DNA from: a phage
Strand: one strand, 5' to 3'
Length of the DNA stretch: 64,000 nucleotides
Sequence record: PZ229304.1
The notes beneath the pieces were generated by a model, which saw nothing but the letters and a program-made list of their open reading frames with translations, did not search any database and had not been told where the DNA came from. Positions 1,605-33,140 of this stretch are shown one piece after another. A program made the translations under genes and the position numbers. The stretch's first letter is position 1. Each line of letters opens with the position of its first letter.

Positions 1605-1694
1605 AGCTTATATAGAGGCTTGTTACCCATAGGCAATGGTAACGCCAGGGCAAGCCTATAAATCAACGTTAGACGGCTTTACAGGAGCTTTAAA

Positions 1695-1877: not shown

Positions 1878-1885
1878 GGCAAGAA

Positions 1886-2287: not shown

Positions 2288-2334
2288 CAACATAGAAAGC
2301 ACGTTATAAGATACACACAACAAAGGAGAACTAC

Positions 2335-2967: not shown

Positions 2968-3291
2968 ATGAAATCTGTGATCGGTGTTTATTTGGATAAC
3001 TCTGATTTTTTCTATCATCGCGCTCGTTTCCTTGATGCGATTGAAATGATAGAATCAGGCTTTAAAGAGTATCGCCTTGCACATGATGACCTGGAAGCAT
3101 TACAGGGCAATAGTGTTTTTACATTGCAAGCGAAAGCACTATGTAAAAGCCGGATCGACATTGCGAGCAAAAAGATAGAACGCGGCATGTCCTGGTTGCG
3201 CACCGCAGAAATCAACATGGGGCAATGGCACGGCGAAAACTTAGAAAATAAACATACTTTTGTCAATGTAGAAAATATTGAAGATTATTGA
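2968..3291 (+). CDS. hypothetical protein
   Basis: ORF track, start moved to internal ATG 2968. Confidence 0.4.
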   Translation: MKSVIGVYLDNSDFFYHRARFLDAIEMIESGFKEYRLAHDDLEALQGNSVFTLQAKALCKSRIDIASKKIERGMSWLRTAEINMGQWHGENLENKHTFVNVENIEDY

Positions 3292-3353
3292 TTGACAGCA
3301 CACCTGATAAGTAGTATATTGTATCTCATAGAGCGGGGAAATGGTTTCCCCGC
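3292..3353 (+). promoter_or_regulatory. early promoter (TTGACA 3292-3297) plus PeSL GCGGGGAAA-tgg-TTTCCCCGC (3333-3353)
   Basis: Same cassette architecture. Confidence 0.55.
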
Positions 3354-3373
3354 CTTAAAAGAAGAGATAAGCT

Positions 3374-3658
3374 ATGAAGATCACAAAAGCACTTTCCAAC
3401 TATGCAGCACGTCGCGGCTTATGTTTAACCGTTGAAAACCTGGGGAAAGAAGATTTTTTGTGCTTTTGGGAGCTTGAGAATGATAATGAGTGGATCTTCT
3501 CTTATTCTATCTGCGAAGATCAAAACGGTTGTTTATTAACCTGGCGCGGTAATATCTATCTACCGGAAGAAATCAAAGAAGAATTGCCAGGCACGATCAT
3601 GACTGAGAAACAGCTTAAGGAAGTGATCAATTTTGTAGGGCAAAACATTAAAAAATAA
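3374..3658 (+). CDS. hypothetical early protein
   Basis: ORF track; RBS; PeSL upstream. Confidence 0.5.
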   Translation: MKITKALSNYAARRGLCLTVENLGKEDFLCFWELENDNEWIFSYSICEDQNGCLLTWRGNIYLPEEIKEELPGTIMTEKQLKEVINFVGQNIKK

Positions 3659-3719
3659 TTTGACACCAGGCAAACAACGTAGTAAAGTTTATCACATAGG
3701 GCGGGAAATGGTTTCCCGC
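3659..3719 (+). promoter_or_regulatory. early promoter (TTGACA 3659-3664) plus PeSL (3701-3719)
   Basis: GCGGGAAA-tgg-TTTCCCGC hairpin after conserved CACATAGG. Confidence 0.55.
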
Positions 3720-3741
3720 TCACAACAAAAGAGAACAAATC

Positions 3742-3912
3742 ATGATCCCGACTATGTTTTACGTATCGCGCAAAGGTCACAATATTTTTTGGTCTGAAGA
3801 TTTAAATGAAGCCATGACGTTTGCCCGTGATCGTGTTGCTATCGGTGGCGTTAACATTACTGTAACCGATGAAAACGGCATTGAATACTATAACGGCGAC
3901 GATGAAGAGTAA
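3742..3912 (+). CDS. hypothetical small protein (56 aa)
   Basis: ATG 3742 after GAGAACAAA; open to TAA 3910-3912. Confidence 0.4.
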   Translation: MIPTMFYVSRKGHNIFWSEDLNEAMTFARDRVAIGGVNITVTDENGIEYYNGDDEE

Positions 3913-3919
3913 TTAATGA

Positions 3920-3940
3920 GGCGGGGGAGTATTCCCCGCC
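3920..3940 (+). promoter_or_regulatory. PeSL-like GC hairpin GGCGGGG/CCCCGCC with no recognisable promoter upstream
   Basis: Inverted repeat between a stop codon and the next RBS. Confidence 0.4.
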
Positions 3941-3959
3941 GTCAATAAAGAGGTAAATC

Positions 3960-4229
3960 ATGAAAATATCATTTGACGTTGCAATCAAGGCCATCGAATC
4001 CGGTTACACCCTGGTAAAAGATGATAAGGCTAAAATAGTGCATCATGTTAACAAGGAAACAGGCGAAAGCATGATCACATATAAAGCCGCCTACTTTCTC
4101 CAATCAGTAGCAGATCCGCGCGTACAGCGCCAGGTCACGGCGGCTATTGCTAAAAAATTATGTGCTTTACAGGGCACAAGTTTTAACGAGATCCCGCCGT
4201 GTTTTGACTGGTCGAGCTTGAAAAAATAG
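3960..4229 (+). CDS. hypothetical protein
   Basis: ORF track; RBS AAGAGGTAAA. Confidence 0.5.
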   Translation: MKISFDVAIKAIESGYTLVKDDKAKIVHHVNKETGESMITYKAAYFLQSVADPRVQRQVTAAIAKKLCALQGTSFNEIPPCFDWSSLKK

Positions 4230-4230
4230 T

Positions 4231-4292
4231 TTGACAATATGCGGTTATCTGGTAAAGTGTACCACGTAGGGCGGGGCAATAAGGCAACGCCC
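4231..4292 (+). promoter_or_regulatory. early promoter (TTGACA 4231-4236) plus degenerate PeSL (4269-4292)
   Basis: GGGCG...CGCCC inverted repeat after CACGTAGG. Confidence 0.45.
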
Positions 4293-4308
4293 ACTAATGA
4301 GGGTAAAA

Positions 4309-4413
4309 TCATGTTAGAGAAAATTTTCACGGTTGTAGTAGTGGGCCTGGCGTTATCGGTTGGATTGGTTGCAACTATGGCTAACATGATCCTATCTTCC
4401 CACGGTATTGGAT
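4309..4413 (+). CDS. hypothetical small hydrophobic peptide (34 aa, probable membrane peptide)
   Basis: ATG after GAGGGTAAAA; hydrophobic stretch VVVVGLALSVGLVA. Confidence 0.3.
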
Positions 4414-4425
4414 AAGGTGAATCAA

Positions 4426-4659
4426 ATGATCACGAATAAGACAGGTAAAACAGAATTTTTACGCGGCTTGCAAATAGGTAAACCTGAAATCTGGCATTGC
4501 ACTAAAACACCACGTGACGAAATGAAAGATTTCACCGCTACTTTACAACGTGTTAAAATATCTATCACACAGAAAAAAGCCTTGTTAGTAGTAGAAAACG
4601 AGATCCCGCAAACCAGATCGGGAATGATTTACATTTTACCCGTAACGGTCACGGCGTAG
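4426..4659 (+). CDS. hypothetical protein
   Basis: ORF track, start moved to ATG 4426 after AAGGTGA. Confidence 0.4.
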   Translation: MITNKTGKTEFLRGLQIGKPEIWHCTKTPRDEMKDFTATLQRVKISITQKKALLVVENEIPQTRSGMIYILPVTVTA

Positions 4660-4786
4660 GCTTTTGGGATCGCCCTGAAATATACACTACTAACACCGCC
4701 AACCGCCTAACAAATGCGGCTAAATTAATGCCATCGGTGCATGCTTACATTGGTGAAGATAATTTGATTTATATTGAATAAAAAGT

Positions 4787-4848
4787 ATTGACACCGATCC
4801 CCCAATATGTTACTATTTACCACGTAGGCGGGAAATGGTTTCCCGCCA
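4787..4848 (+). promoter_or_regulatory. early promoter (TTGACA 4787-4792) plus PeSL GGCGGGAAA-tgg-TTTCCCGCC (4828-4848)
   Basis: Third identical hairpin copy. Confidence 0.6.
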
Positions 4849-4870
4849 GGTAATCAAAAAGGTAAATACT

Positions 4871-5260
4871 ATGCGCAACCTGGTTTCTGTTTCTAACGTT
4901 GAAAAATTCCAATCTTTACAGGGTATCGTTAACAACGTAGCGCCTTTTTTAGTCAATGGCTTGATTGCAAAGATGAAGAATAAACATCATGCCGCATGGT
5001 CTGCTTACTGCTTTGACAATGATGAAAAAGCGGCTGAAATGATGTTAAATATGCTGTTAGACAGTGTAGAATCATCTTTACCGGAAAACATCGCAGAAGA
5101 GATCACCTATCGTTATAATATGGCGATCACTTACCAGGAGGTTGCGCAATTTAATATGATGGACGATGACGAACAACAGGATCAGGAAATATTCTGGGAG
5201 TATGCGGATCGTCAATCGGCTTTTGATGAAAAGTTAGCGATGTATTATAACGAATATTAA
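4871..5260 (+). CDS. hypothetical protein
   Basis: ORF track, start moved to ATG 4871 after AAAAAGGTAAA. Confidence 0.5.
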   Translation: MRNLVSVSNVEKFQSLQGIVNNVAPFLVNGLIAKMKNKHHAAWSAYCFDNDEKAAEMMLNMLLDSVESSLPENIAEEITYRYNMAITYQEVAQFNMMDDDEQQDQEIFWEYADRQSAFDEKLAMYYNEY

Positions 5261-5276
5261 TACACGGTAAAAGAAA

Positions 5277-5300
5277 GGGGCGCACTAAGCGCCCTTTTTT
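5277..5300 (+). terminator. rho-independent terminator GGGGCGC-actaa-GCGCCC plus T6
   Basis: GC hairpin plus T-run. Confidence 0.65.
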
Positions 5301-5722
5301 GTATTCTTTTTTCACAATGGAAGCGACACGTAAAGAATAGGCGTAAAGGTGGCGTAAAACCATCTAAAACCGACTGTAACCGCTTAAACAAGGTAGGAAT
5401 GATTAATCACCTTACCAGGATGAAAAAGCTGTTATAAAGCTATATAGGGCGTTTAAAGCACATAGGAAATAATTTGCTTTTTATCTTGCCTTTTATTCTG
5501 CTTTTGATTATTATTATGGAACGGGCGGCACCTGGGAACAGGGGAAGATAATCACCGGACGACCCCGCTATATATTGATAGCTAACATCTATCAAACAAC
5601 AAAACATCAAAGGAATAAACTATCAAATCTTTACAATCTCATCTATTGACCGGTAAATCATAGCAGTTTAATATTGTTTTTAGAGGGTAGAACATACCCA
5701 AAACGAAAACAGGAAAAAGAAA

Positions 5723-5959
5723 ATGAAAGAAGTCATGATCCTCAAAAAATCACCTATTTTACGTGGTGGCTTTATCGCTTACTCTGATGATCTGTTAATT
5801 GCAACGGTTGCAAAAATACTAAAATCAGAAGAGGATAGTAAAAACGGCGTTTATCGTATCTGTTTCACCCGTGGGAAATTGCAAGGCAAGATCGCCTATG
5901 CTTTTGATTTACAAGATGTAAATGATAAAATCTGCGCTGTTATTGATTATGCAAAATAA
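5723..5959 (+). CDS. hypothetical protein
   Basis: ORF track; RBS AGGAAAAAGAAA. Confidence 0.45.
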   Translation: MKEVMILKKSPILRGGFIAYSDDLLIATVAKILKSEEDSKNGVYRICFTRGKLQGKIAYAFDLQDVNDKICAVIDYAK

Positions 5960-6046
5960 TTAACTTTCTTATTGACACCGGATCACGCTTACATTATTAT
6001 TTATCACGTAGGGCAAATCATTTTAAACGGTAAACGAGGAATCACC

Positions 6047-6430
6047 ATGAGCAATATCATCAACCTGGCGGCTACTGTAAACGGTAAAGATTTTAACGGC
6101 GCTGTAGATCGTGATCCTATGTGGTGCTTATCCGTGTTTAAAGGCGATCTGGTTGAAGTTAGAACAACCGAAGGTTATAGCGACGATTATAAATGCGAGA
6201 TCCATTTACACAACTGGTACACGGGTAAAACTTATGCGCTGAATCATGCGTTTATCGGCAAGGTTGAATATAGAGAAATGATCGACGAAGAAACGGGGCA
6301 AGATTTTAGCGATTATGTTTATATCCGTTCCGAGACATTAGCAGAACGTTTGATCGAGAAAATGAAAGCAAAAAATAAAATTAATTTAGCTCATTGGATT
6401 GATATAACAAACGATCCAGCTTATAAGTAA
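6047..6430 (+). CDS. hypothetical protein
   Basis: ORF track, start moved to ATG 6047 after GAGGAATCACC; promoter TTGACA 5972-5977 upstream. Confidence 0.5.
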   Translation: MSNIINLAATVNGKDFNGAVDRDPMWCLSVFKGDLVEVRTTEGYSDDYKCEIHLHNWYTGKTYALNHAFIGKVEYREMIDEETGQDFSDYVYIRSETLAERLIEKMKAKNKINLAHWIDITNDPAYK

Positions 6431-6446
6431 ATGACACTTCACACCA

Positions 6447-6472
6447 GGGCGCACAAAGCGCCCTTTCTTTTT
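6447..6472 (+). terminator. rho-independent terminator GGGCGC-acaaa-GCGCCC plus T-run
   Basis: GC hairpin plus TTTCTTTTT. Confidence 0.65.
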
Positions 6473-6677
6473 ACCTAAATAAAGATGATAGCTTTTACCT
6501 ATCAAAAACGTTCACCGAAAAAAGTGAATAGATCGCGGTATCGAGCTAATCAAGGAGCAGATGAACAACCATACCATGAAGATCATAAGGCGCTTACAGC
6601 GTGTTTTAGACCGCTTATTTTTAATTTCTTCATGCAACTATTTGGCAAAAACAGCCTTTTTCTTGTCTTTCCTCTTA

Positions 6678-6690
6678 AATGATAATCATT
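6678..6690. promoter_or_regulatory. Fur-box-like palindrome AATGATAATCATT
   Basis: Exact match to the 13-bp core of GATAATGATAATCATTATC. Confidence 0.3.
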
Positions 6691-6733
6691 CTTATTTATA
6701 GCTGATTATTTATGCAATAAACTGCATAATGCA

Positions 6734-6748
6734 ATAATGATAATCATT
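6734..6748. promoter_or_regulatory. Fur-box-like palindrome ATAATGATAATCATT
   Basis: 15 of 16 contiguous positions match the Fur-box consensus. Confidence 0.3.
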
Positions 6749-7613
6749 CTTAACTTATGACCATCTAACCTATAAAATAATAAGTTATCTAACTAAATTA
6801 AAACTAATTATCTTACTTTTATTTATAACTTACTGTTACTATCTCATTGATAACCTTATATTAAACAACAATAACTAATATAAATCATTACTAAGCTAAA
6901 TATAATCTATCTAACCTTTAAAACTATAACTATAATCTATTGAATTATTGCACAAAGTAACTATTAAATCGTTAGTAACATTACTAAATAATTAATATCC
7001 TATCTATTTATGATCTAATCTTTACATTCCTATCTATTACCTAAATAATCATTTCATATAGTAATCATTTCATACAATAACTATAACAAGAAATATAATT
7101 CGCAAGCGTATCATTAGCAGCCTATGCCGGACACATAGGCGGCTAATAATAACGCAACTACACACCCCACATAATAACTATCACCGATAGTTATTATTTG
7201 TGCTTATGTAGCTTGCAACAACTGCAAGCGCAACAATATACATGGTATATTGTATCCCTTACATTGTTGCGGTGCGTTATTATTAGCTAATGTTTAGAAC
7301 ATTGGCTATAATATAAGCTAAATCATAAGCTATGCAATAATAAACATGGTGAATAATGACATTGATGATCATAATGCGCCACCTTCCAGGGGGCGCTATG
7401 TGAACACAAAGAAATCTTTCTTGTCAAGAAAATATTACTACTATTGCGCAAAATTATTTATATCTGAATAGATGATTTTTTATGCTATTGCCCCCTTGAT
7501 TATTACTATTTGTTGCCCTAACTATTGTCATTTGTTGAGCCTACTTTCTTAAAAGCGCAATAAATCAGAATTATCTTGATTTTTAGTCGGTTTTATAGTA
7601 CAGAAAGTATGCA

Positions 7614-7629
7614 AATGATAATCATTATC
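7614..7629. promoter_or_regulatory. Fur-box-like site AATGATAATCATTATC
   Basis: 16 contiguous positions identical to Fur-box consensus positions 4-19. Confidence 0.35.
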
Positions 7630-7795
7630 AGCTATCTTCCACGGGTGGCACTATTTCACGCCAGATCATTTCATTTGGCAAGGTGTATATAGATGTTTAG
7701 AAATGCCAAGCCATTGATTTACTTAGAATTTATCTGTTTTGTTGTGAGTAGTGCCTTTCTTGCTCAGAAAATAATCAAAAGTCTTATAAGTCATT

Positions 7796-7830
7796 GAATG
7801 ATAATGCAAATGATAATTATTCTCATTGAT
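7796..7830. repeat. degenerate tandem of GATAAT-type hexamers (tgaATGATAATgcaAATGATAATTATTCTCATTga)
   Basis: Repeated ATGATAAT units. Confidence 0.3.
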
Positions 7831-8272
7831 ATTTGAGGGGGACGGTCGGCAGAAATCGGGGGGCGCTGAAAATCGCGTTAAGCACCTCTCGCAAGCGAGC
7901 AGTATTTTGCGGCAAGTTATTGATATTATTGACTTTACGCTTAAGAAAAGGGGGCGTGTCGAAATAAATCGGGTATACCGGAAAATTTTTGTGGCATAGA
8001 TATTTATTTGTCTATATTATGTACAAAGGGGTGTGTTAAAAATAATAGGTATATATAGAATAATTGATAGGGAAATCCTATACTAAATCCTTCATTAATG
8101 ATGTTCCTATGTTGCTGTTCTTGTAATAGATGAAAAGACGCTATATGATGTGTGGCATGAAACGTAAACTTATAAGATGCAAATAATGCTTGCATTGAAT
8201 AGAAATGTCTATACACTGTGTTTCATAAGATATGCAATATCGCGCATAACAAACTACTAATGAGAGGTGTAA

Positions 8273-16580: not shown

Positions 16581-16685
16581 ATTTCTGACATTTATGCGCC
16601 CTGGCTACCTGGGCGTAATAAATTCAGCTTATATTTGATCCGCGCCTTCGGCGCTTAGGCAAAGCCACGCCACACAGGAGGGTTT

Positions 16686-17096
16686 ATGTTCAAATGGTTA
16701 AAAGGGTTTCTAACATCTTTGGCAGAACCTAAGCAAGATGTTATTAAAAGCTCTATCACAGGAAAACCGCTTGTTATAGTTACAGGCGGCTTTGGTCATG
16801 GGTTTTCTCTTAAACAAACAGATATAGGTTTACAGGGATGTTTGATTAGTTTTAGAATCACTCAATTAGGAGATAATAGACAAACAATCTTAGACCTTTT
16901 CAATGGGGAATTTGATGACTATTTATCCAAGAGTGGTAAAGAACGTCTGATCGAGCATATAAAACACCGCTATGAGCATGGTGGTTACTACTTAGATACA
17001 AAACGTAATACACAAGGTGATCTTGACATAGTTCGTATAGCGTGGGATAATGAATTTAAAACTAAACTTGGTAAACTTCTGGAGGAGTTATGGTAA
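16686..17096 (+). CDS. hypothetical protein
   Basis: ORF track; RBS CAGGAGGG. Confidence 0.5.
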   Translation: MFKWLKGFLTSLAEPKQDVIKSSITGKPLVIVTGGFGHGFSLKQTDIGLQGCLISFRITQLGDNRQTILDLFNGEFDDYLSKSGKERLIEHIKHRYEHGGYYLDTKRNTQGDLDIVRIAWDNEFKTKLGKLLEELW

Positions 17097-17272
17097 ATAT
17101 TAAAACAGGTGATATTGTACGTCTTGCTAGTGAAGAAATGTTAATGACTGTAATGGTATCTACCTATGATACTTGCGAAGTGGTGTGGTTTGATGTTAAT
17201 GAACAACTACAGAAAGCTACATTTGATAAACGTATGCTTCGTAAAGTTGAAGAAGTGAAGGAGGAAGAATAA
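17090..17272 (+). CDS. hypothetical protein
   Basis: ORF track. Confidence 0.4.
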   Translation: MVNIKTGDIVRLASEEMLMTVMVSTYDTCEVVWFDVNEQLQKATFDKRMLRKVEEVKEEE

Positions 17273-17273
17273 T

Positions 17274-17486
17274 ATGACAATGTTGCTTCGTATGTTTGTG
17301 TTTCTTATGTTCTGGATTATCGTTGGTAACGGTATTGTGTTTTTGATTTTTCCTGAAGTAATGACAGGTAATGAAAATAAGGCAGTGCCTTACATTATGC
17401 TTATCGGTTACGGTATTGGTACACTTGGATTACTGTTTGCTGACTGGTTAGTCAATACTTTGTTCTCTAAGTACAGGAACAACTAA
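17274..17486 (+). CDS. hypothetical membrane protein (two predicted TM helices)
   Basis: ORF track; hydrophobic segments. Confidence 0.45.
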   Translation: MTMLLRMFVFLMFWIIVGNGIVFLIFPEVMTGNENKAVPYIMLIGYGIGTLGLLFADWLVNTLFSKYRNN

Positions 17487-23991: not shown

Positions 23992-24512
23992 ACAACCTCC
24001 TCGTAATTGTTATTGTGTTTTACTGTCTCAACATACAATAAAGATTCCATCTGTAATACATTACCAGAAATAATAAACCCATAAGCCATTTCAGATGTGT
24101 CTATATCATATGCCCCGTCTTCCGGTTTAGCAAAGTGTAAAACTATTTCATCTGGGTTTTCTTCATCCCATAGTTTAGAAATTTTCCGAACCAGAATGTT
24201 AGCTAAAATAGTTGACATTCGGGATAAAGCTGTATCCTCATATCTTTTAAAACCTAGCCAATAGAGGTTAAGAATTTCTACTTCTTCTTGTGTTAAGTTT
24301 TTATCTAAAGTAATCAGATCTGTAGAGCACGGCGTTTTTGTTGAACCTACTGTTACAAAACCTGGAGTGTTATGAAAAACAATCTTAACTTTATCACGTA
24401 TAAAGTTTAAACCTTGTGCCTCAACTATATATTGTATTGTAGGTACAATATCGTTTGTTACATCAATAAAACTATCTTTAATGACGCTTATATTATTTCT
24501 GGACAAGACCAT
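23988..24512 (-). CDS. hypothetical protein
   Basis: ORF track. Confidence 0.5.
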   Translation of the reverse strand: MVLSRNNISVIKDSFIDVTNDIVPTIQYIVEAQGLNFIRDKVKIVFHNTPGFVTVGSTKTPCSTDLITLDKNLTQEEVEILNLYWLGFKRYEDTALSRMSTILANILVRKISKLWDEENPDEIVLHFAKPEDGAYDIDTSEMAYGFIISGNVLQMESLLYVETVKHNNNYEEVV

Positions 24513-25074
24513 TCTCCTCTAAAATAGGCTTAATAAATTCGAAAATTTGTTTTTTACTTTTACCTCTAATATTAAAACAAGGAACATTAAACTTTTTAGC
24601 CAACATCCAAGCTGTTCTTGTACCACCTAAAGGATCTCCATTTTTATCTGTATTTGCACAAGCTAAAAGAAAACAAGATGGTTTTGGATTCTCAAGATCC
24701 CTGCCAAGAACTTGGTGGATATTTCTTTGATGTAATTTTTTAGCACCTTGAGATAATCTGTCCCAAGCTGGATGCAATTCTTTTGCATATTGCAAGGTTA
24801 GAGCATAGTTTACACTATCTGGTCTGTCAAGAACAATAACCTCTCCCTCTATCTCATTACCTTTAAACGAAGGCCAAGGAATGTATATTTCTTTCTTTGT
24901 ATTGTTTCCACTATCATACACCCCGCATTCAAATGCGGAATCTGCACCTTCTGCTTTACCAGATCGTAAAATGAACCATGTAGATAACCATTTTGCAACA
25001 GCTACCATAGTGTCCCATTCTTCGTCTGTAATATCTCTGCTACCAACACCTGTGTAGAATAAATCGCTCATGGT
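24493..25074 (-). CDS. DprA/SLOG-like Rossmann-fold protein
   Basis: Start moved to MSDLF with AAGGAG RBS; GVGSRD...RSGKAEGADSAF resembles the DprA/Smf/LOG pattern. Confidence 0.45.
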   Translation of the reverse strand, partial: TMSDLFYTGVGSRDITDEEWDTMVAVAKWLSTWFILRSGKAEGADSAFECGVYDSGNNTKKEIYIPWPSFKGNEIEGEVIVLDRPDSVNYALTLQYAKELHPAWDRLSQGAKKLHQRNIHQVLGRDLENPKPSCFLLACANTDKNGDPLGGTRTAWMLAKKFNVPCFNIRGKSKKQIFEFIKPILEENGLVQK

Positions 25075-25081
25075 TTTCTCC

Positions 25082-25402
25082 TTAACAAGTAATATTTGGA
25101 ATAATACTGGGAGTAACAATTGGAGTAATAGGGTACGTAAACCAAGGGCTTCCAATTTCCCAAGGACTATAAGGTGTACGAGGATCAAATGGAGGCGTTA
25201 CTTGAGGCTTTTTCCAAATCTCCGCTAGTTGTTTCTTCCATTTATCCCTTGCTGTATCGTTATCTTCATCCAACTGTTCGTCATTATCTTTTATTTCTGA
25301 TTTTGGAAATAAAAGCTCTTTGACTAACTCAACGTCTTCCGTTTCAATAGTAGTTTCTTTCGTAATATTCCCTACCGTCTCTTTAATTGTGACTTTATAC
25401 AT
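25082..25402 (-). CDS. hypothetical protein
   Basis: ORF track. Confidence 0.4.
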   Translation of the reverse strand: MYKVTIKETVGNITKETTIETEDVELVKELLFPKSEIKDNDEQLDEDNDTARDKWKKQLAEIWKKPQVTPPFDPRTPYSPWEIGSPWFTYPITPIVTPSIIPNITC

Positions 25403-26148
25403 TAGTCCTCCTCTAAAGTAGAATAAAATTGTAACGTATTTGAATCATCAAAATATGCAAAGGTTAAATTACCATTGAAGCAAGATCCTGTGTCCATATA
25501 TACCCTATTACTGCTAATTACAGGTTTAGGAACATAAGAATGCCCGTGAAATACATAATCTACTCCTGAAACTCTAGGAAGAAGAATCCCTTCAAGGGCG
25601 CAATCTATCATATCACGATCCCACATTAAAGATTCTGTGAATCGAGATACTTGCTCTTTATTCATATTCAAACAAAATGGCAAAACTTCTGTCACTGGTA
25701 AATGTTCCAAAACTGAAGGATACCCACCGTGAATAAAGCCTAGTTTCATATCACGATAATTGACAACAAGTACAACAGGTAAATCTTCTAGCATCAAAGC
25801 AAGAGCAGTTGCACCCTCTTCTCCACACTCGTCTAGAACTGTATGGCCTCCGTTCTGAAACCAACATTCGTAATATCGTCTATCACCTTCTAGCAACCCT
25901 TTAATCATCATATCTTCATGATTTCCACGAATACCATAACGATTTAGCTTTCTGGTGAATTCAACAACACAACGAAAATTCTGCTTGCCGCGATCTGTAA
26001 GATCTCCTAAAGATACAACAACATCTTGATCTCGGATACCTAAAGTATTAACACCTTTCTGGTACAAATCAAAGCAACCATGTAAATCACCAATAATAAA
26101 TAGGTCTTGATCATCTTTTACACTAATTTCTTGATATACTAGCATCAA
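25402..26148 (-). CDS. PPP-family Ser/Thr protein phosphatase (lambda-phosphatase-like metallophosphoesterase)
   Basis: GDLHG, GDLTDRG, GNHE metallophosphatase motifs. Confidence 0.75.
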   Translation of the reverse strand: MMLVYQEISVKDDQDLFIIGDLHGCFDLYQKGVNTLGIRDQDVVVSLGDLTDRGKQNFRCVVEFTRKLNRYGIRGNHEDMMIKGLLEGDRRYYECWFQNGGHTVLDECGEEGATALALMLEDLPVVLVVNYRDMKLGFIHGGYPSVLEHLPVTEVLPFCLNMNKEQVSRFTESLMWDRDMIDCALEGILLPRVSGVDYVFHGHSYVPKPVISSNRVYMDTGSCFNGNLTFAYFDDSNTLQFYSTLEED

Positions 26149-26471
26149 CTCTCCTCAAAATCCATAAGTATAAAGATATTAACTTTACCTTCTATATTAT
26201 GTTCTACAACAAGATCTGCAAATTCTTTGTAGGCTTTTTCTTCTATTTGTTCAATGTGAGACGCTACATCTTTGTATATAGCGTCACCATCTACTTTAAC
26301 AAGGAGGAATAGAGATCTTACTTCAATCTCTTTATTTTTACGGGGTAGAAAATCGACGGCTTCTTGTATACGCCAGCCGAGATACCCTGGAGTCCTTTGA
26401 ATATCCTCCAAATGACTTTCTAAGATTTCCCTTCCTTTGTCTATTAAAGCCTGTTCTGTCGTTATTTTCAT
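26145..26471 (-). CDS. hypothetical protein
   Basis: ORF track. Confidence 0.45.
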   Translation of the reverse strand: MKITTEQALIDKGREILESHLEDIQRTPGYLGWRIQEAVDFLPRKNKEIEVRSLFLLVKVDGDAIYKDVASHIEQIEEKAYKEFADLVVEHNIEGKVNIFILMDFEES

Positions 26472-26481
26472 CCCCTTCTCC

Positions 26482-27054
26482 TTAATGTGTTAATGAAACT
26501 GCGTAGCTAAACACAGGTTCAGATATTACATCGGCTACAGTAATAAAAACGTCTTCGTCTTGAGTTGTTTCTACACGACATACAGTTACACCATTCACCA
26601 CGAATTCAACGCAATGTGGAATATCTTCACAAACGAAGGTAGTGTAAGTAACACCCAAAGCATCATACAAAGATTTAACAGTGTTTGCAAGTGCCGCAGT
26701 TTCTTCTTTTTCTGAGACAATGAATGCTGTAACAACAAGATTGTTTGCATAGTTTAGACTGTCCTCTATAGCCAATGATTTACAAGGTAGTAATGCAAAA
26801 TATTTACCTGGTTTAATCAGACCTGCTTCCCATTGATTCAAAATTGCTTGGGATGGTTTAGTAATATAAAACAGATTTTCACTTGGGTTATCAATATTAC
26901 TTCTGGCGATACAACGTGAAGGATTATTAATATCAAACACATGATCAAAATCTACACAAACTGGTAAACTGAAAGGTGTGAATTTTTTACCTAATAATCC
27001 TACTGCTGACAATATGTTTACTGTGCTTATCTTCCCGTTAAAAGCTAAACGCAT
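26482..27054 (-). CDS. hypothetical protein
   Basis: ORF track. Confidence 0.5.
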   Translation of the reverse strand: MRLAFNGKISTVNILSAVGLLGKKFTPFSLPVCVDFDHVFDINNPSRCIARSNIDNPSENLFYITKPSQAILNQWEAGLIKPGKYFALLPCKSLAIEDSLNYANNLVVTAFIVSEKEETAALANTVKSLYDALGVTYTTFVCEDIPHCVEFVVNGVTVCRVETTQDEDVFITVADVISEPVFSYAVSLTH

Positions 27055-27065
27055 ATTTAACTCCT

Positions 27066-27269
27066 TTAACTAGCAACCGTAACTTCCGAACTTTCTTCTT
27101 TCGTACTGTCTACGATATGCCTGGTGGCAATATACGAGACTTGCCAGTTACCATCTGGTGTAGTCTCAATAAGTACCCTATCTACTTCGAGAAAATGCAA
27201 AAATTCAACCATCGCTCGCTTCGATAGGAATTGTTTTTTAACAGTCTCCTCAAAAGATTGAACTGCCAT
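27066..27269 (-). CDS. hypothetical protein
   Basis: ORF track. Confidence 0.4.
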   Translation of the reverse strand: MAVQSFEETVKKQFLSKRAMVEFLHFLEVDRVLIETTPDGNWQVSYIATRHIVDSTKEESSEVTVAS

Positions 27270-27278
27270 GTTTCCTCC

Positions 27279-27941
27279 TTATTTAATATTCAATTTTGCA
27301 CAAAGACGTTGTACCGCTTTGGCATCGAACAAACTCCCACGAATAGTTCTCTTTCCTGATTCATTCAGATGCTTTGCAATCGTCATATATGGCGTTTTAC
27401 AAGCTCTGTATGCAACTAAAGAATCTTTTAAAGAAAGCGCAAACTCTTTTGAGCGTTTTGCTTCTTCCGTTTTCGTATAATCTGTTCTTTTGTATTTAGG
27501 GTTTGCTGCACCAAGAAGCGTTCCCTTCGCTTTTGCTACCTTAAGGCTCTTCTTAACACGATCAGATATTGCACGAGCCTCTTCTTCTGCCAGAACTGCT
27601 AAAATATTTATTATCATATTTTCAGCGGAGGGCATAGTTGCTATTCGTACATTAATCATCTCTAACAAGGTTGCAACAGAAGCTGTGTTACGTCCAAGAC
27701 GGTCAACCTTAGCAACAACAAGTGTAGCACCTGTTTCTTTGCAAAGATTAACAGCTTTTACAAGCTCTCTACGTTGCTTCCAATCGCCTTTACCAGAATA
27801 AAACTCTGCAAAGCTACCTACAATAGTATAATTTTCTTGTGAATCCAGGAAGCGTTGAATATCTGCTTCCTGTGATTCTATACCATACTGGTTGCCTTGT
27901 TGTTTCTTCTTAGAAAGTCGATGATATAGTACAAACTTCAT
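27279..27941 (-). CDS. serine recombinase (resolvase/invertase family)
   Basis: YHRLSKKKQ catalytic-serine motif, VAKVDRLGRN, ILAVLAEEEARAISDRV; resolvase-like catalytic domain plus C-terminal extension. Confidence 0.7.
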   Translation of the reverse strand: MKFVLYHRLSKKKQQGNQYGIESQEADIQRFLDSQENYTIVGSFAEFYSGKGDWKQRRELVKAVNLCKETGATLVVAKVDRLGRNTASVATLLEMINVRIATMPSAENMIINILAVLAEEEARAISDRVKKSLKVAKAKGTLLGAANPKYKRTDYTKTEEAKRSKEFALSLKDSLVAYRACKTPYMTIAKHLNESGKRTIRGSLFDAKAVQRLCAKLNIK

Positions 27942-27998
27942 AATACCCTCCTGTTCTGTTACAGGAAGTATGCACTACCTTAATGTTAAAGTCAACAG

Positions 27999-28202
27999 TT
28001 AAGTAGTGGTAATATCATCCTCTTGAATACCAGGGTCAACTTCTGCAAAGATAGCCTCTACAGGAATTTCTTCACCTGCTATTCTAGAAAGAAGCACTGA
28101 ACCAATAGCTTTTGCGTGTTCTTCGGATTCCGCATAAACATTAGTTCCTGTGTCTTTTTTCTTAGTTTCGTTAAAATATACCAGATAGTAATTGTATGCC
28201 AT
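27999..28202 (-). CDS. hypothetical protein
   Basis: ORF track. Confidence 0.4.
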   Translation of the reverse strand: MAYNYYLVYFNETKKKDTGTNVYAESEEHAKAIGSVLLSRIAGEEIPVEAIFAEVDPGIQEDDITTT

Positions 28203-28453
28203 TATTCATCCCAATCGCCGTTACGAGCACTTTCAAGAACCTTGACAACTTCTGCATACTCTACAGCTAAACCAGCACATACTTCAGCTTGTTTTGCAAT
28301 TGCTTGCTTAAAGAACATAGCGATTGCAACACTCTGTGTTGTGTGAATGTTATCTGCTTTAGTTGATACATGAAGATCAAAATCTTCTTCATCAAAGGTG
28401 AGTTCCATAGTAACAATAAATTTCTCGGTCATAAAAATGCTCCTCTTAAACAA
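28202..28453 (-). CDS. hypothetical protein
   Basis: ORF track. Confidence 0.4.
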   Translation of the reverse strand: MFKRSIFMTEKFIVTMELTFDEEDFDLHVSTKADNIHTTQSVAIAMFFKQAIAKQAEVCAGLAVEYAEVVKVLESARNGDWDE

Positions 28454-28955
28454 AATAGAAAGGTTGAGTTAAACCCAGCCTGTTTTTTGGGTCGTAGACG
28501 TACCAAGCATATGCTGTCTTATCAGTACCACCTGCAACAAAAGATGGTCGTTCAGAAAGAACAATCAAATTTGTTGGTGGATTCTGTTTATGGAATTCCC
28601 TTCGTTTAATAGACTCTAGGAACCCAAGACGCAACAAGTATATGCAAACGTCTGCTTCTTTTAAGCTCTTTTGCAAGAACTCAAGTGCAAGTTTGAATGG
28701 GGGATTTGTGATTATAATATCCGGCTTAGTATGCCATTCGTGGTTAAAATAATCTTTCCCTTCTTCTAACTCACAATATTCTGATCCTTCTGGAAAATGT
28801 TGATAAATTGCAGCAGCAGCGCCTTTACACGGTTCTGCAAAAATAAAACCTTCTTCTTTAAGGTTATTAAAATCTATTACACTAAATAATGCATTTATAC
28901 ATTTTTGTGGAGTAGGATAGTAATCAGTTGGTGGACGATCATACTTATTTGCCAC
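28446..28955 (-). CDS. small DNA methyltransferase, probable N6-adenine type (NPPF catalytic motif)
   Basis: IITNPPF motif IV-like plus N-terminal DYYPTP / EPCKG AdoMet-pocket-like segment. Confidence 0.55.
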   Translation of the reverse strand: MANKYDRPPTDYYPTPQKCINALFSVIDFNNLKEEGFIFAEPCKGAAAAIYQHFPEGSEYCELEEGKDYFNHEWHTKPDIIITNPPFKLALEFLQKSLKEADVCIYLLRLGFLESIKRREFHKQNPPTNLIVLSERPSFVAGGTDKTAYAWYVYDPKNRLGLTQPFYFV

Positions 28956-29373
28956 TACTTAAAATCTCCTCTTTTGTGATTTCAGGGTCTTCTTCAAAAA
29001 CCATAATATCTCTTAAGAACGTTAATTCTTCCATAGATACTGGTATTGTATCTTCTTCTGTTTTTCGTTTACATAAATCGTCAAGAAAGTTTTTAAAGTT
29101 TTCTGACAAATCGTAAAATTTCAACAGTTGATAATCACAGGAGGAGATCCTATCTAGTTCTAACATTCTTTCTAAGATATTTTCTGTGTTGCCATACAGC
29201 ACACGAACTTCTCCGAAAGGGTTGACTGAGTATTGTGAAGTTCTGAACCATCCCTTTTTAGATACAGTGTAACGCTGTTCTGCTAAACTTTCAATAAAAT
29301 TTTTAGCTCTTTTACAGTTTTGTTCTAAAGAGTAGTAGGCTTTTTCTACAAAGGTTACAGGTACTGGTAACAT
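28945..29373 (-). CDS. hypothetical protein
   Basis: ORF track. Confidence 0.45.
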   Translation of the reverse strand: MLPVPVTFVEKAYYSLEQNCKRAKNFIESLAEQRYTVSKKGWFRTSQYSVNPFGEVRVLYGNTENILERMLELDRISSCDYQLLKFYDLSENFKNFLDDLCKRKTEEDTIPVSMEELTFLRDIMVFEEDPEITKEEILSSGK

Positions 29374-29413
29374 ATCTCCTCCTAATAACCCCCTCGCGGG
29401 GGTTTATACTAGA

Positions 29414-30067
29414 TTAATTATCAGAGGACACTTTATCAAGTTTTTCAGAGACTGTCAATACTTTTTCTTGTGATTCTTTCATTTCTGCTAAAATACTTTC
29501 AGCTTCATCACTATCAGGATCACCAGTCAACAGCATACTAATTAGTTGCTCCTTGCTGAAGTTCAGAATATCTTCCGCTGTTAACTCCAGTTGTTCTTCG
29601 ATCTCTTCGATAAAAGTTTCACCGCCTGAAAAAGCATCTCGCAGTTTTGCAACTTCCATCGCTTCTTCTGGAGTTGCCCCTGCATCTAAAGCTGCTAAAG
29701 CAAAATCTGCCCCACTACCAACAGCATAATAATCTTCAGTTAAAGGATATGCTCGCGTTGGATTATTACCCTCGTGCATATAAATTTTACCGTCTGGGTG
29801 AACAACCAATGCCACAAACTCTTCATCTTCTTTATCAGGATCGGACTGGATCACCAAACCTGGGATTGTCTCTTGTGCTGCTTGGCATTGTAAGTTTTGT
29901 TCGAACCAAGAAAAGAAAGTCAGGATAGAAGACAGACGTCCTGCACCACCAACAAGGTAGTCCCCAATTTTACGCACTTTCTTGAAATTTAAAGTGTCTA
30001 CACGACTACCTACTGTTACTTTACCGTCAGACAGAATTTTGTTACGTGTTGCAATAATTGTTGTCAT
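29414..30067 (-). CDS. HslV-like Ntn-hydrolase peptidase (proteasome beta-like) with C-terminal acidic extension
   Basis: N-terminal MTTIIATR (Thr at position 2), GDYLVGGAGR, pattern resembling HslV TTIVSVR...GFAGG. Confidence 0.55.
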   Translation of the reverse strand: MTTIIATRNKILSDGKVTVGSRVDTLNFKKVRKIGDYLVGGAGRLSSILTFFSWFEQNLQCQAAQETIPGLVIQSDPDKEDEEFVALVVHPDGKIYMHEGNNPTRAYPLTEDYYAVGSGADFALAALDAGATPEEAMEVAKLRDAFSGGETFIEEIEEQLELTAEDILNFSKEQLISMLLTGDPDSDEAESILAEMKESQEKVLTVSEKLDKVSSDN

Positions 30068-30558
30068 TGTACTTCCTCCTGTAGTGTTTTAAGGACTGCT
30101 TTACCACCGCTTACATATTTACGGAGGTAATCAATAGCTCTTAGTGTTTCTTTATCCACAAGAATTTTATTAGTTCTTGTTAGTGGATGATTTAGTAAAT
30201 CACTGCAATTTCTTACTAACATAGATTTCTTGTGAAAAATACTGCTAAGAAAAAGAAGTTTAGAATCTTCTTCATCAATCAGGAGTAATTCTGAATTAGA
30301 CCCAGCTACATTTATTATACACTCAAACAAGCCTTCTTGACTATCAGATAATTCCTGGTAATATTTAGTTAGCCAATCCTCGCCTTTTAACCAACTAAAA
30401 AACATCTGAACTTTTTGCAAAGTTGTCATGTTCTCTAAACGAAGAGATATTTCTTTTTCAATCTTGTCAATATAAATCTGTCTAAACTCATTCGGCTTAA
30501 CTAAGCCAGCTTGATAGCATTCATCAATACCATTGCGATCAATCTCAATTAGCGTCAT
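30064..30558 (-). CDS. hypothetical protein
   Basis: ORF track. Confidence 0.5.
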   Translation of the reverse strand: MTLIEIDRNGIDECYQAGLVKPNEFRQIYIDKIEKEISLRLENMTTLQKVQMFFSWLKGEDWLTKYYQELSDSQEGLFECIINVAGSNSELLLIDEEDSKLLFLSSIFHKKSMLVRNCSDLLNHPLTRTNKILVDKETLRAIDYLRKYVSGGKAVLKTLQEEVQ

Positions 30559-30594
30559 TTAACCTCCATAACAGGCATCCTTGCCTTGTAATTA

Positions 30595-31347
30595 TTAGTA
30601 TACTTCCGTGATGAACTGAGACAAACGGGAACGTTGGTTATCAGCAGTTGTCATTTCAACATAACCAATAAAATCCACAATAGCTTCCCTTTCTCCTTCT
30701 TCATTAATAGGAACAACACGATCTAACAAATCACCTAACCCGTTAGCTCTTCGTTTAATTGCATATGTTTGATTAACATCGCCCATAATGACAATACGTG
30801 TATTAAGACCTGCTCGCTCAAGGAGAAGTTTTACTGTATTTGGTGACATAAGTTGAACTTCATCAATAAGAATAATGCTGTTATCCCACGTAGCACCTAG
30901 TGCATAGTTTGGAATATTAAGTTCAATTTTGCCACTTGCAATATCGTTTTCCAATTTATTTGCAGTCATAAACTGTTGGAAAATTCTTTTAGTTGATTCG
31001 TAGTGTGCTGCTAGTTTATCAGTCTTATCTCCAGATAAGAAACCAATTTGATCATCACCTACTTCTGTCGGGTTTTTAAGGAAAATCAACTTTCTGAAAT
31101 CACCAGCTTTAAGCATTTGCAATGCTTTCCACAGTGCTGTTGTCGTTTTTCCTGTTCCTGCTGGGGCATTAACAATGGTTAAATCATTCCAAACCATGCT
31201 TCTTACAATAGCTTCTTGATTCCCAACAGGGGTAAATTCATCAAGACGGTAATCATCATTTCCTACTGCTTTAGCCGCATAACGACTGGCACGTTTGTCA
31301 TCATTGGCTGCTGATTGACGACGAGCCTTTGCGGTTTTATTTCCCAT
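30595..31347 (-). CDS. phoH: PhoH-like P-loop ATPase
   Basis: Walker A NAPAGTGKTT, IGFLSGD, LIDEVQ motifs. Confidence 0.8.
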   Translation of the reverse strand: MGNKTAKARRQSAANDDKRASRYAAKAVGNDDYRLDEFTPVGNQEAIVRSMVWNDLTIVNAPAGTGKTTTALWKALQMLKAGDFRKLIFLKNPTEVGDDQIGFLSGDKTDKLAAHYESTKRIFQQFMTANKLENDIASGKIELNIPNYALGATWDNSIILIDEVQLMSPNTVKLLLERAGLNTRIVIMGDVNQTYAIKRRANGLGDLLDRVVPINEEGEREAIVDFIGYVEMTTADNQRSRLSQFITEVY

Positions 31348-31366
31348 GTTTGCACTCCTTATAAAA

Positions 31367-31380
31367 GGGGCTTTCGCCCC
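31367..31380 (-). terminator. hairpin GGGGC-tttc-GCCCC (repeated terminator cassette, copy 2)
   Basis: Between lysozyme stop and phoH start; flanked by A/T runs. Confidence 0.55.
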
Positions 31381-31385
31381 TTTGT

Positions 31386-31886
31386 TTAGTTATAAGCGTC
31401 TAATGTTCCAGTTTTAAGTACCTGAATTACACGCTCTGCGCGATTAGGCGTTTGGCGATACCATTTACTTTTACGTAAATTTATAGAGGCTTGAGTATAA
31501 TATGAATTACTCACTAAAGTCAAGCTATTTTTGAAAGATTCTGCACCTTTCAATCCCATTTGAAATACCATATTGATAATAGCCATTTTACGATTAGGAC
31601 TTACTTTATCGTAAATAGGAGATAATATGGTGCTTGAATGGATCTGTTGTATCGCTTTCTTTACGTCACTCTCAAAGATTTTTCTAGCTTCCGCTTCAGT
31701 AATAACCCCATTGGTTTTTCTACCTACTAAGTTATCAAGAATGCGTATAGCTTCTGCTTTATCTTTGCGTTTTGTCAGAAGGTGTCCAATACCAACTGTC
31801 CAATACCCTTCGGTATCAGGATACACAGTTAGCTTTAGTCCTTCATCAAAACGTAACATATCAAACACATCAACTACTTTAGCCAT
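31386..31886 (-). CDS. e: T4-type lysozyme (endolysin, gene e homolog)
   Basis: Near-collinear with T4 lysozyme: MLRFDEGLKLTVYPDTEGYWTVGIGHLLTK, INMVFQMG, SKWYRQTPNRAERV. Confidence 0.9.
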   Translation of the reverse strand: MAKVVDVFDMLRFDEGLKLTVYPDTEGYWTVGIGHLLTKRKDKAEAIRILDNLVGRKTNGVITEAEARKIFESDVKKAIQQIHSSTILSPIYDKVSPNRKMAIINMVFQMGLKGAESFKNSLTLVSNSYYTQASINLRKSKWYRQTPNRAERVIQVLKTGTLDAYN

Positions 31887-32046
31887 GTTTTCCTTATATT
31901 AGTCGCCCTCCCCATGATCTAGCTCTTGAAACAGTAGGTGTTCAGGAGACATTTCACGTTTAGGCTTCGTCTTTTTAGTTTGGGACTTAAGCTCTGTTGC
32001 CAAAGCACGAGAAAAGATCTTACGTTTCTGTTTACCTTTCATATTG

Positions 32047-32313: not shown

Positions 32314-33140
32314 TCCTTGTTTAAAAGTATAGTTAAAGTTCTTACAATACCGCTATCAACACTTCGCGGATTTAAAGTAGGATCTGTTTTTAAATAAGAT
32401 GTTGCTGGTCTGACTGCTTTGGAATTATAGGTTGAAGCAGATACAGGATTAACTGTAACAGACAAATCTATAACAAGAAATATCTTTCGTGCAAAATCAT
32501 ACCAAGAAATATAATCTGCACCTGCATAGTGTACAATTTTACTATTTACACCATCTTTTACAAGTTTAAAAATTGTTTCTGCAAGATCAGGTGCATAAGT
32601 AGGACATGATAAATGATCACATACTACATTAAATTCTTTTTGACCACCGTTGTAGCGTTCCAACATAGTTTTCAAAAAGTTATGTCCAAATTCACTATAA
32701 ACAGAAGCTGTTCTGATAATAAGTGCTGTAGGACAAACTGCTTGTACTAAAGTTTCACCTAATTGTTTACTGTAACCGTAGGTGTTCAAGGGGTTTGTTT
32801 TACTCTCTTCTGTGCCAGCAACATGTCCATCAAAAACATAGTCTGTTGAAATATGTACAAACTGTATCAGTAAATCATTACATGCTTTGGCAATGTTTGT
32901 TGCACCGTATGCATTAACATTTATACAGGTGTTAACATCTTCTTCAGCTTTATCTACTGCCGTGTAAGCCGCACAATTCACAACAACATCAGGCACGTGC
33001 TGTACAAGACTATTCATAACATCTTTAAAGTTGGTAATGTCTATATCACTTGCTTCAATCAAAATAACATCTTCGGGCGCAACTTTTGCCAAAGACTGTC
33101 CTAATTGACCTTTTGAACCAAAGACTAAAAATTTTGTCAA
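32310..33140 (-). CDS. rmlD: dTDP-4-dehydrorhamnose reductase
   Basis: N-terminal Rossmann GSKGQLG; size and position in rml operon. Confidence 0.65.
   Translation of the reverse strand: MTKFLVFGSKGQLGQSLAKVAPEDVILIEASDIDITNFKDVMNSLVQHVPDVVVNCAAYTAVDKAEEDVNTCINVNAYGATNIAKACNDLLIQFVHISTDYVFDGHVAGTEESKTNPLNTYGYSKQLGETLVQAVCPTALIIRTASVYSEFGHNFLKTMLERYNGGQKEFNVVCDHLSCPTYAPDLAETIFKLVKDGVNSKIVHYAGADYISWYDFARKIFLVIDLSVTVNPVSASTYNSKAVRPATSYLKTDPTLNPRSVDSGIVRTLTILLNKE

Follow-up and report, generated by a model that had tools for sequence, protein, structure and literature searches.

The recombinases with which the gene described here can be compared are the Tn3 and gamma-delta resolvases and Sin, the Hin/Gin/Cin/Pin invertases, the large serine recombinases (Bxb1, SPbeta SprA, CcrB and XisF), the IS607-type proteins and, by function, Cre of phage P1. 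The Tn3 and gamma-delta resolvases autoregulate at their own promoters, and in integrases zinc-ribbon and coiled-coil domains give directionality. Small serine integrases of the phiRSM type are similar to the protein described here in length and domain order. From what is known of the family, dimers would bind a dyad site and two such sites would synapse in a tetramer; Ser10 would then cut both strands with 2-nt overhangs, the subunits would rotate, and the DNA would be religated. Six residues (Y6, R8, S10, D36, R68 and R71) are crucial in Tn3 resolvase (PMC2794168).

We analysed a gene for a protein of this family in a 64,000-nucleotide stretch of phage DNA (sequence record PZ229304.1), referred to here as the window. 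The explanation that we lean to, and put forward tentatively as a whole, is a small active serine recombinase with a gated leader that carries out a resolvase-like reaction on phage DNA.

The recombinase gene, its protein and its family

Positions 24000-32000 of the window match 56 phage records over the full length, with 95-99.5% identity. These are phi92-like Escherichia phages of the genus Justusliebigvirus, subfamily Stephanstirmvirinae, and by sequence the window is that of a phi92-like virulent coliphage. The phage is of a size class of about 150 kb and strictly virulent, and related phages have been described without lysogeny genes (PMC5374246, PMC10269720). The deposited genomes of phi92 and of Salmonella phage UAB_1 are linear, with 343-bp direct terminal repeats (Table 1). 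The recombinase gene lies about 20 kb from the left end, inside a long leftward block, and its neighbours are small phage early genes; the setting given in the preliminary description (a virulent phage, a leftward block, neighbouring methyltransferases) is confirmed. Among the neighbouring genes checked there is no transposase or plasmid maintenance module.

The open reading frame begins with ATG, and GGAGG lies 7 nt upstream. In the phi92 reference its counterpart, Phi92_gp053 (PHI92_gene_053), is annotated as 'putative recombinase, resolvase family protein / DNA invertase', and the protein is 99-100% identical across all 56 phi92-like genomes. The best PHROG match is phrog_125 'DNA invertase' (E = 1.3e-31), followed by phrog_95 'integrase'. 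Neither the gene nor its assignment to this family is new, since public records already contain both; literature searches found no functional study of Phi92_gp053.

Table 1. Features of the recombinase locus and the terminal repeat, in window coordinates
Feature	Position	Strand	Basis or detail
Serine recombinase gene, 220 aa + stop	27279..27941	-	ORF list; PF00239; identical to Phi92_gp053
Catalytic domain and long E-helix, aa 1-141	27519..27941	-	Family alignment, gamma-delta alignment, AF2, Foldseek
C-terminal DNA-binding domain (predicted), aa 154-220	27282..27482	-	PF07508, CcrB profile, SPbeta profile match, fold search
Leader hairpin (predicted), with the palindrome of the preliminary description as its core	27947..27968	-	Fold energy and orthologue comparison
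Hairpin 5' arm	27968-27961	-	CUUCCUGU
Hairpin loop	27960-27955	-	
Hairpin 3' arm	27954-27947	-	ACAGGAGG, with the Shine-Dalgarno sequence
Sigma-70-type promoter (predicted)	27967..27995	-	Consensus scan; TTGACT, 17 nt, CATACT
Direct terminal repeat (DTR)	7538-7880		343 bp

Pfam PF00239 (Resolvase) matches residues 4-141 with E = 8.4e-22 and 78.3 bits, against a cut-off of 23.3. This bears out the earlier reading of a 220-aa serine recombinase with a catalytic core, the motifs of which are present. In a family alignment of 26 homologues (30-88% identity), Y6, R8, S10, Q24, E46, G50, R57, D80, R81, R84, E121 and R128 are invariant or nearly so. Apart from Q24 and G50, these are the residues of note in the catalytic domain, and in an alignment with gamma-delta resolvase their counterparts are Y6, R8, S10, D36, R45, D67, R68, R71, E118 and R125. 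All six residues crucial in Tn3 resolvase are present, as Y6, R8, S10, E46 (= D36), R81 (= R68) and R84 (= R71). The AlphaFold (AF2) model (pLDDT 87) consists of a catalytic alpha/beta domain, a long helix (residues 108-138), a disordered linker and a helical C-terminal domain, and the best structural matches of the whole model in Foldseek are Bxb1 integrase, Sin and gamma-delta resolvase. Judged by these sequence features, the gene is genuine and intact and codes for a strongly conserved serine recombinase, a small enzyme that is, by its residues, catalytically competent. Ser10 would be the nucleophile of the N-terminal resolvase-type domain, and the long E-helix would serve dimer and tetramer formation. 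We regard it as almost certain that the enzyme is active and of use to the phage.

The C-terminal extension noted in the preliminary description turns out to be an extra HTH domain (aa 154-220), predicted to be of integrase type. It is helical, with an inserted G..T.RG loop. Pfam PF07508 'Recombinase' is matched by 18 of the 26 family members, the alignment to the NCBIfam CcrB profile reaches residue 212 of the window protein, and a profile of the C-terminal domain weakly matches the recombinase domain of the SPbeta integrase (E = 0.055); for a model of the isolated domain the best folds are those of Bxb1, which are not significant (E about 1.4). HTH_7, the Hin/Tn3-type domain, has no match in the window protein or in a scan of the family (26 members). 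The NCBIfam families CcrB, Mpi, YneB and XisF all score far under their cut-offs (CcrB 35.8 against 900 bits, Mpi 33.5 against 272, XisF 25.8 against 375), and IS607 gives no match for the window protein at E <= 0.01, with only distant relatives matching, far below the cut-off. By these profile matches, the C-terminal HTH is akin to the opening part of the 'recombinase domain' in large serine integrases. Because HTH_7 is missing, the C-terminus is recombinase-domain-like and the NCBIfam scores fall below their cut-offs, we class the protein as a small serine recombinase with a 'mini recombinase-domain' HTH, outside the invertase, Tn3-resolvase, large-integrase and IS607 groups.

This architecture of about 220 aa is very common and is found in large virulent phages, other phages and small plasmids. 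An exhaustive profile search returns 3,394 cluster representatives at E <= 1e-30, and the top matches are mostly 215-240 aa long and aligned over their full length. The family is without a characterised member. Small plasmids carry full-length homologues (35% identity over 98-100% of the length); one homologue, on a 7.3-kb Phaeobacter plasmid, adjoins rep, ParA and RHH genes. Such a neighbourhood is the usual setting of a multimer resolvase, and it suggests that members of this architecture could serve as multimer resolvases, an analogy with plasmid resolvases that rests on gene context.

The predicted leader hairpin and promoter

The preliminary description placed a near-palindrome just upstream of the start, at 27947-27964, and proposed it as a binding or crossover site. 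The palindrome is present, but at 27950-27965 (CCTGTTCTGTTACAGG; two 5-bp arms around a 6-nt spacer). At the DNA level it is trivial: palindromes of equal grade (5-bp arms with a spacer of 0-8) number 971 in the window and turn up in 39% of 60-nt tiles. A second copy, for which a search had been proposed, is not found in the window within 3 mismatches (0.49 expected by chance), and in the complete phi92 genome the other matches occur only at 3 mismatches.

As RNA, the palindrome is the core of a predicted leader hairpin, whose helix of 8 pairs (CUUCCUGU/ACAGGAGG) takes in the Shine-Dalgarno (SD) sequence. The fold of the 46-nt leader has an energy of -15.2 kcal/mol (z = -4.6), which ranks second by z among the 106 SD-bearing gene starts in the window, and only 3% of these 106 starts, this leader among them, have the whole SD base-paired in a structure at least as strong as -10 kcal/mol. 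Hairpins that pair the SD, each of differing sequence, are predicted in seven of nine orthologues (z -1.6 to -4.3) and are weak in the other two. The orthologue L021 has a perfect 10-bp helix (AAUCUCCUCU/AGAGGAGAUU), and L055 has an equivalent helix (CUCCUCUU/AAGAGGAG). RNAalifold finds no column-wise consensus or covariation for the leader hairpin across the orthologues because their hairpins lie in different registers; the support for the hairpin is parallel occurrence in these sequences, not formal covariation.

Of the predicted promoter, TTGAC, a 17-nt spacing and a -10-like hexamer are kept in all nine distinct orthologous upstream regions, and in each of them the -10 element is followed by a pyrimidine-rich stretch, a short loop and the SD. 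The -10 element overlaps the 5' arm of the hairpin, and thus transcripts from the gene's own promoter, with a predicted start inside the loop, should lack that arm and would be translatable. In transcripts that read through from upstream, the anti-SD stretch would pair with the SD, which would be sequestered and the message translationally silent.

From one orthologue to another the dyads are entirely different in sequence (CCTGT.. versus CTCCTCT..). Every dyad takes in the SD. The same orthologues all share one predicted recognition helix, DAKAVQRLC, without change, which makes the dyad an unlikely binding site for the enzyme itself. Since most orthologues form an equivalent hairpin from different sequences, we infer that translation gating by a leader hairpin explains the palindrome better than a crossover site does. 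The site first proposed is further disfavoured by the lack of sequence conservation, by the lack of a partner copy and by the overlap with the SD.

Target sites, distribution and possible roles

No target site for the recombinase was identified in any of our searches. Apart from the terminal repeat, the repeats of the window and of the complete phi92 genome consist of terminator hairpins and of promoter/hairpin units at the right end. Self-BLAST of the whole phi92 genome gives no inverted repeats of at least 18 nt that bracket a segment, terminator hairpins aside, and at 21 orthologous loci inverted repeats near the gene occur at chance level only. The upstream intergenic region contains the promoter and one hairpin, and at 57 bp it is too short for a classical res site. 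A dyad scan of 27000-28300 returned chance-level matches only (9/12), with no repeated half-sites. Even-spaced 12-bp dyads, looked for within and next to the terminal repeat, gave a single match (10/12, at 7450-7479), just outside the repeat, and its equivalent is absent from phAPEC8.

Other candidates were examined and set aside. A perfect 19-nt inverted repeat (26203-26221 and 62815-62833) was dropped, as it has no associated inversion and both copies lie inside called ORFs (ORF 26145-26471 and phi92 gp115); in phi92 it has one mismatch. A cluster of palindromes at 7110-7290 was rejected as a set of recombinase sites; its three dyads are mutually unrelated, all have odd spacers, and by sequence pattern they look like hairpins. 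Fur-box-like palindromes of the terminal region match the host Fur consensus and were rejected also, and an Rfam search of the terminal region found nothing.

No inversion variants occur among the approximately 56 relatives over window positions 1-25000, 24000-32000 and 39001-64000 and the phi92 tail module, across which they are collinear. The only differences among them in the compared segments and the tail-fibre module are replacements of receptor-binding genes. With window positions 25000-31000 as the query, phi92-like sequence is absent from 5,426 complete E. coli genomes.

Orthologues of the recombinase are encoded in all Justusliebigvirus records (100%), in Klebsiella phage FKP3 (78%) and in phAPEC8-like Phapecoctavirus (57%), as well as in large Vibrio and Shewanella phages (33-50% identity). 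Metagenomic relatives come from large virulent phages, where they lie beside NAMPT and rIIA/rIIB genes, and others from other phage-like contexts. Against orthologues of 72-79% identity, dN/dS is 0.07-0.10, with synonymous sites near saturation. In L021, the syntenic locus that has diverged most, identity is 72% for the recombinase and 31-68% for the flanking genes. These values indicate that the recombinase is conserved at least as well as nearby core genes and that the gene is kept under strong purifying selection, at odds with the decayed remnant that the preliminary description had considered. In the copy of one relative, Schickermooser, several indels shift the reading frame within the 5' half of the gene; if that sequence is correct and these are not sequencing errors, the gene would be dispensable for propagation and plaque formation.

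The gene does have a history of relocation, with another locus in phAPEC8-like phages and an empty site at the locus described here. In phi92-type phages the recombinase lies between gp054 and gp052. The phage phAPEC8 keeps the syntenic block (DprA, phosphatase, gp051-like, gp052-like, gp054-like, methyltransferase, HslV and PhoH); there, only 45 bp, with a terminator hairpin, separate the gp052-like from the gp054-like gene, and the phage's own recombinase copy (57% identical) is about 16 kb away, in a rightward early block. By this comparison, the insert in the phi92 lineage is a promoter, a leader and an ORF only, a single-gene cassette between two conserved small genes, and the junction sequences contain no terminal repeats or duplicated target at its borders. 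The position is stable inside each genus, so ongoing hopping is disfavoured, and the pattern would fit an old relocation or two separate acquisitions. In a comparison of neighbourhoods across genera, no partner gene (directionality factor or accessory protein) is conserved beside the recombinase beyond the genus. In the Vibrio and metagenomic phages, the recombinase is the sole gene in common with the window neighbourhood.

Several functions could be proposed for such an enzyme. A DNA invertase that flips a phage segment, for example a tail-fibre or promoter switch, with the palindrome as one crossover site, would agree with the best PHROG match, with a weak similarity to the catalytic domains of Gin, Cin and Hin, and with the annotated multi-fibre adsorption apparatus of phi92, which is complex. 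We consider it highly improbable, however: HTH_7 is missing and the Mpi score is far below its cut-off, inverted repeats of at least 18 nt that bracket a segment are absent from phi92 and at chance level at the 21 orthologous loci, collinearity extends through the compared window segments and the tail module in the approximately 56 relatives, and the palindrome is neither repeated nor conserved in sequence. The invertible segment suggested in the preliminary description finds no footing in these results. We give little credence, too, to a protein that has lost recombination and been repurposed as a DNA-binding regulator, or as a covalent DNA-end-binding or nicking protein, with the palindrome as the operator of an autoregulatory circuit. 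The centre of the dyad coincides with the predicted transcription start of the gene's own promoter, which recalls the autoregulating resolvases, and no recombination site was found. Yet all catalytic residues are conserved in the family down to 30% identity, and a mere binder would not need them; the dyad sequences vary between orthologues while the predicted recognition helix does not, and the inclusion of the SD in every dyad points to a role at the RNA level.

Action on host DNA is an unlikely explanation, whether as a small serine integrase that would allow occasional integration or pseudolysogeny or in the early rearrangement, excision or inactivation of a prophage, satellite or defence island. 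It draws on the predicted early sigma-70-type promoter, the integrase (LSR) type of the DNA-binding domain, the lack of a site on the phage in the repeat and dyad scans, the second PHROG match (phrog_95) and distant homologues of about 205 aa in Staphylococcus epidermidis phages that are annotated as integrases (25% identity); phage adsorption can also be affected by host serine invertases (PMC12529663). Against it stand the absence of phi92-like sequence from the 5,426 E. coli genomes, descriptions of related phages that report no lysogeny genes (PMC5374246, PMC10269720), a length of only 220 aa without zinc-ribbon or coiled-coil domains, and the lack of a recombination directionality factor or partner gene conserved alongside. 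Since prophage copies are absent from these E. coli genomes and integrase-specific domains are missing, the sequence evidence says that this is not the integrase of a temperate phage. This bears on phage therapy, for which phi92-like and phAPEC8-like phages are used or proposed and where a recombinase gene is often read as a warning of lysogeny. We also doubt that the gene is a selfish, hitch-hiking single-gene cassette of promoter and recombinase, comparable to free-standing homing endonuclease genes and of little direct benefit to the phage. Its non-homologous loci in sister genera (gp054/gp052 in the phi92 type, the rightward early block in phAPEC8), its predicted own promoter, the frameshifted copy in one relative and its standing as the only gene shared with the neighbourhood in Vibrio and metagenomic phages would all suit such a cassette. 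Its position is stable within the genus, however, the recombinase is 72% identical where its flanks are at 31-39%, dN/dS is about 0.08, no terminal repeats or duplicated target are seen at the borders, and the domain order is unlike that of IS607-type serine transposases.

We return to an active recombinase with a gated leader that acts on phage DNA. Its most likely role, and the least certain part of the explanation, would be a resolvase-like reaction between directly repeated sites on phage DNA, either in resolving multimeric or circular replicative forms or in cyclisation by way of a site within the 343-bp terminal repeats or close to them. This is our leading but weakly supported guess, with an inversion switch or integration less likely. 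The recombinase may resolve concatemers, as in the preliminary description, or dimers. On the other side, no cognate site was identified, no repeated dyad lies near the gene, and multimer resolution is of no evident use to a linear phage that has direct terminal repeats and packages its DNA from concatemers. With low probability, the enzyme could serve an undescribed step of the lytic cycle, its synthesis restricted by the hairpin to transcripts from its own early promoter; this step might be cyclisation or concatemer formation through the terminal repeats, or early rearrangement or excision of a host element. The architecture, with its thousands of members, would in that case form a functional class of its own among serine recombinases. 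If found, the target could show site-specific recombination in a role that is new for lytic development. At present, the finding concerns an already annotated gene, of a 220-aa class that is common yet has no characterised member, and labels of 'DNA invertase' have spread through phage records without an invertible segment to back them.

Comparison with known systems

Like the Hin/Gin/Cin/Pin invertases, the window protein is a phage-borne small serine recombinase, and its gene is named 'DNA invertase' in records. Unlike them, it lacks a Hin-type HTH, crossover sites, an invertible segment and orientation variants, and identity to these invertases is 30-36% over part of the catalytic domain. 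IS607-type proteins have an N-terminal MerR-like HTH and a C-terminal catalytic domain, whereas the order in the window protein is reversed, with the catalytic domain N-terminal (residues 4-141). The 'integrases' of about 205 aa from the Staphylococcus epidermidis phages CNPH82 and phiIPLA7 align over residues 8-212 with 25% identity, but those phages are temperate, and integrated phi92-like sequence is absent from the 5,426 E. coli genomes.

The role proposed here would be of the same kind as that of Cre/loxP in P1, where a phage recombinase can cyclise terminally redundant DNA and resolve dimers. The analogy is functional only: Cre is a tyrosine recombinase of an unrelated family, P1 is a plasmid prophage, and no lox-like site was identified in the window phage.

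Among the large serine recombinases, Bxb1 provides the best structural match of the whole model and CcrB the best NCBIfam alignment (residues 10-225), and the start of the recombinase domain of Bxb1, SPbeta SprA, CcrB and XisF resembles the C-terminal HTH of the window protein. In contrast to their 450-700 aa, the window protein has 220, and it has neither the remainder of the recombinase domain nor a zinc-ribbon or coiled coil; the phage, unlike those with large serine integrases, lacks attP/attB, a directionality factor and lysogeny.

From Tn3 resolvase, gamma-delta resolvase and Sin, the window protein differs in that it is only about 25% identical, has a region after S10 of large-serine-recombinase type (RLSKKKQQGNQYGIESQ), lacks HTH_7, and carries 11 additional residues within its HTH as well as a longer linker helix. 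In comparison with Tn3 and gamma-delta, the gene also lacks an upstream res site of three subsites and a transposon context. It is like these three proteins in catalytic fold, key residues, long E-helix and a size of about 200 aa and, as with plasmid resolvases, homologues of the window protein are encoded on small plasmids beside rep and par genes.

Palindromes and repeated units at the genome end

Several palindromes of the AATGATAATCATT type are spread over the non-coding terminal region of about 1.6 kb, which includes the 343-bp terminal repeat. Their sequences are close to GATAATGATAATCATTATC, the E. coli Fur-box consensus, and two sites in the terminal region lie within three mismatches of it (≤3), versus 0.04 expected. 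Fur-box-like motifs also have counterparts in the homologous region of phAPEC8, a phage of the sister genus. These palindromes may provide iron- or Fur-dependent control, or titrate Fur, at the genome end.

The same region contains a cluster of three different palindromes. A 15-bp inverted repeat (GCTAATAATAACGCA/TGCGTTATTATTAGC) encloses palindromes 2 and 3, and its left arm overlaps the end of palindrome 1. In phAPEC8 the dyads are kept via compensatory changes (ACTATC/GATAGT to ACCATC/GATGGT). The occurrence of the cluster is limited to the Stephanstirmvirinae, and it has no match in Rfam. It could serve as an origin or as a packaging signal, or form a structured RNA. The right end of the genome also holds repeated units in which a promoter-like sequence (..TATCACATAGG) precedes a GGCGGGAAATGGTTTCCCGCC hairpin, and the same units recur at 138-147 kb in phi92.

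Positions of repeats, palindromes and the gene neighbouring the recombinase in the window
Feature	Position	Strand	Details
Repeated promoter/hairpin units	125-6012		5-6 units, upstream of small rightward genes
Terminal region with AATGATAATCATT-type palindromes	6640-8260		Sites resembling the Fur-box consensus at about 6680, 6733-6751, 7355, 7611-7629 and 7808
Terminal repeat	7538-7880		343 bp
Palindrome cluster	7110-7290		Just inside the right terminal repeat
Palindrome 1	within 7110-7290		TTAGCAGCCTATG-7-CATAGGCGGCTAA
Palindrome 2	within 7110-7290		AATAACTATC-3-GATAGTTATT
Palindrome 3	within 7110-7290		GCTTGCA-5-TGCAAGC
Direct repeat, 20 nt, perfect	25064-25083; 60881-60900		Each copy takes in a leftward gene's RBS and start codon
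Inverted repeat, 19 nt, perfect	26203-26221; 62815-62833		Copies 36.6 kb apart
190-aa gene	26482-27054	-	Neighbour of the recombinase; PHROGs and RefSeq name: 'histidyl tRNA synthetase'

Long-distance repeats and doubtful names

Chance occurrence is improbable for both the 19-nt inverted and the 20-nt direct repeat, and no rearrangement linked to either was found. The inverted repeat has one mismatch in phi92.

The product of the 190-aa gene is much too short for a histidyl tRNA synthetase. It lacks a Pfam match and has a paralogue elsewhere in phi92 (gp196); its name looks like a propagated misannotation. Separately, several records named 'Campylobacter phage' (A150, A145, C3, A110a and MG0656xx) are 98-99% identical to phi92-like coliphages, and are probably mislabelled or contaminant genomes.

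The recombinase locus in other phages

A metagenomic phage contig (IMGVR_UViG_3300025809_001961) encodes two paralogous copies of the recombinase family (4-651 and 6001-6627) in the same orientation, about 5.3 kb apart. The recombinase copy of Escherichia phage Schickermooser (MK373788.1, 11200-11955) bears the annotation of a truncated hypothetical protein. Compared with phAPEC8 it lacks 1, 2 or 7 nt at several places, concentrated in its 5' 330 nt. This copy is either a natural pseudogene or the product of a run of sequencing errors. phAPEC8 itself (NC_020079.1) has an empty site, a 45-bp spacer that contains a terminator hairpin (32713-32759), exactly at the position of the phi92-like recombinase cassette. 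Its own recombinase copy, 57% identical, is encoded at a different locus (16627-17298), within an oppositely transcribed block.
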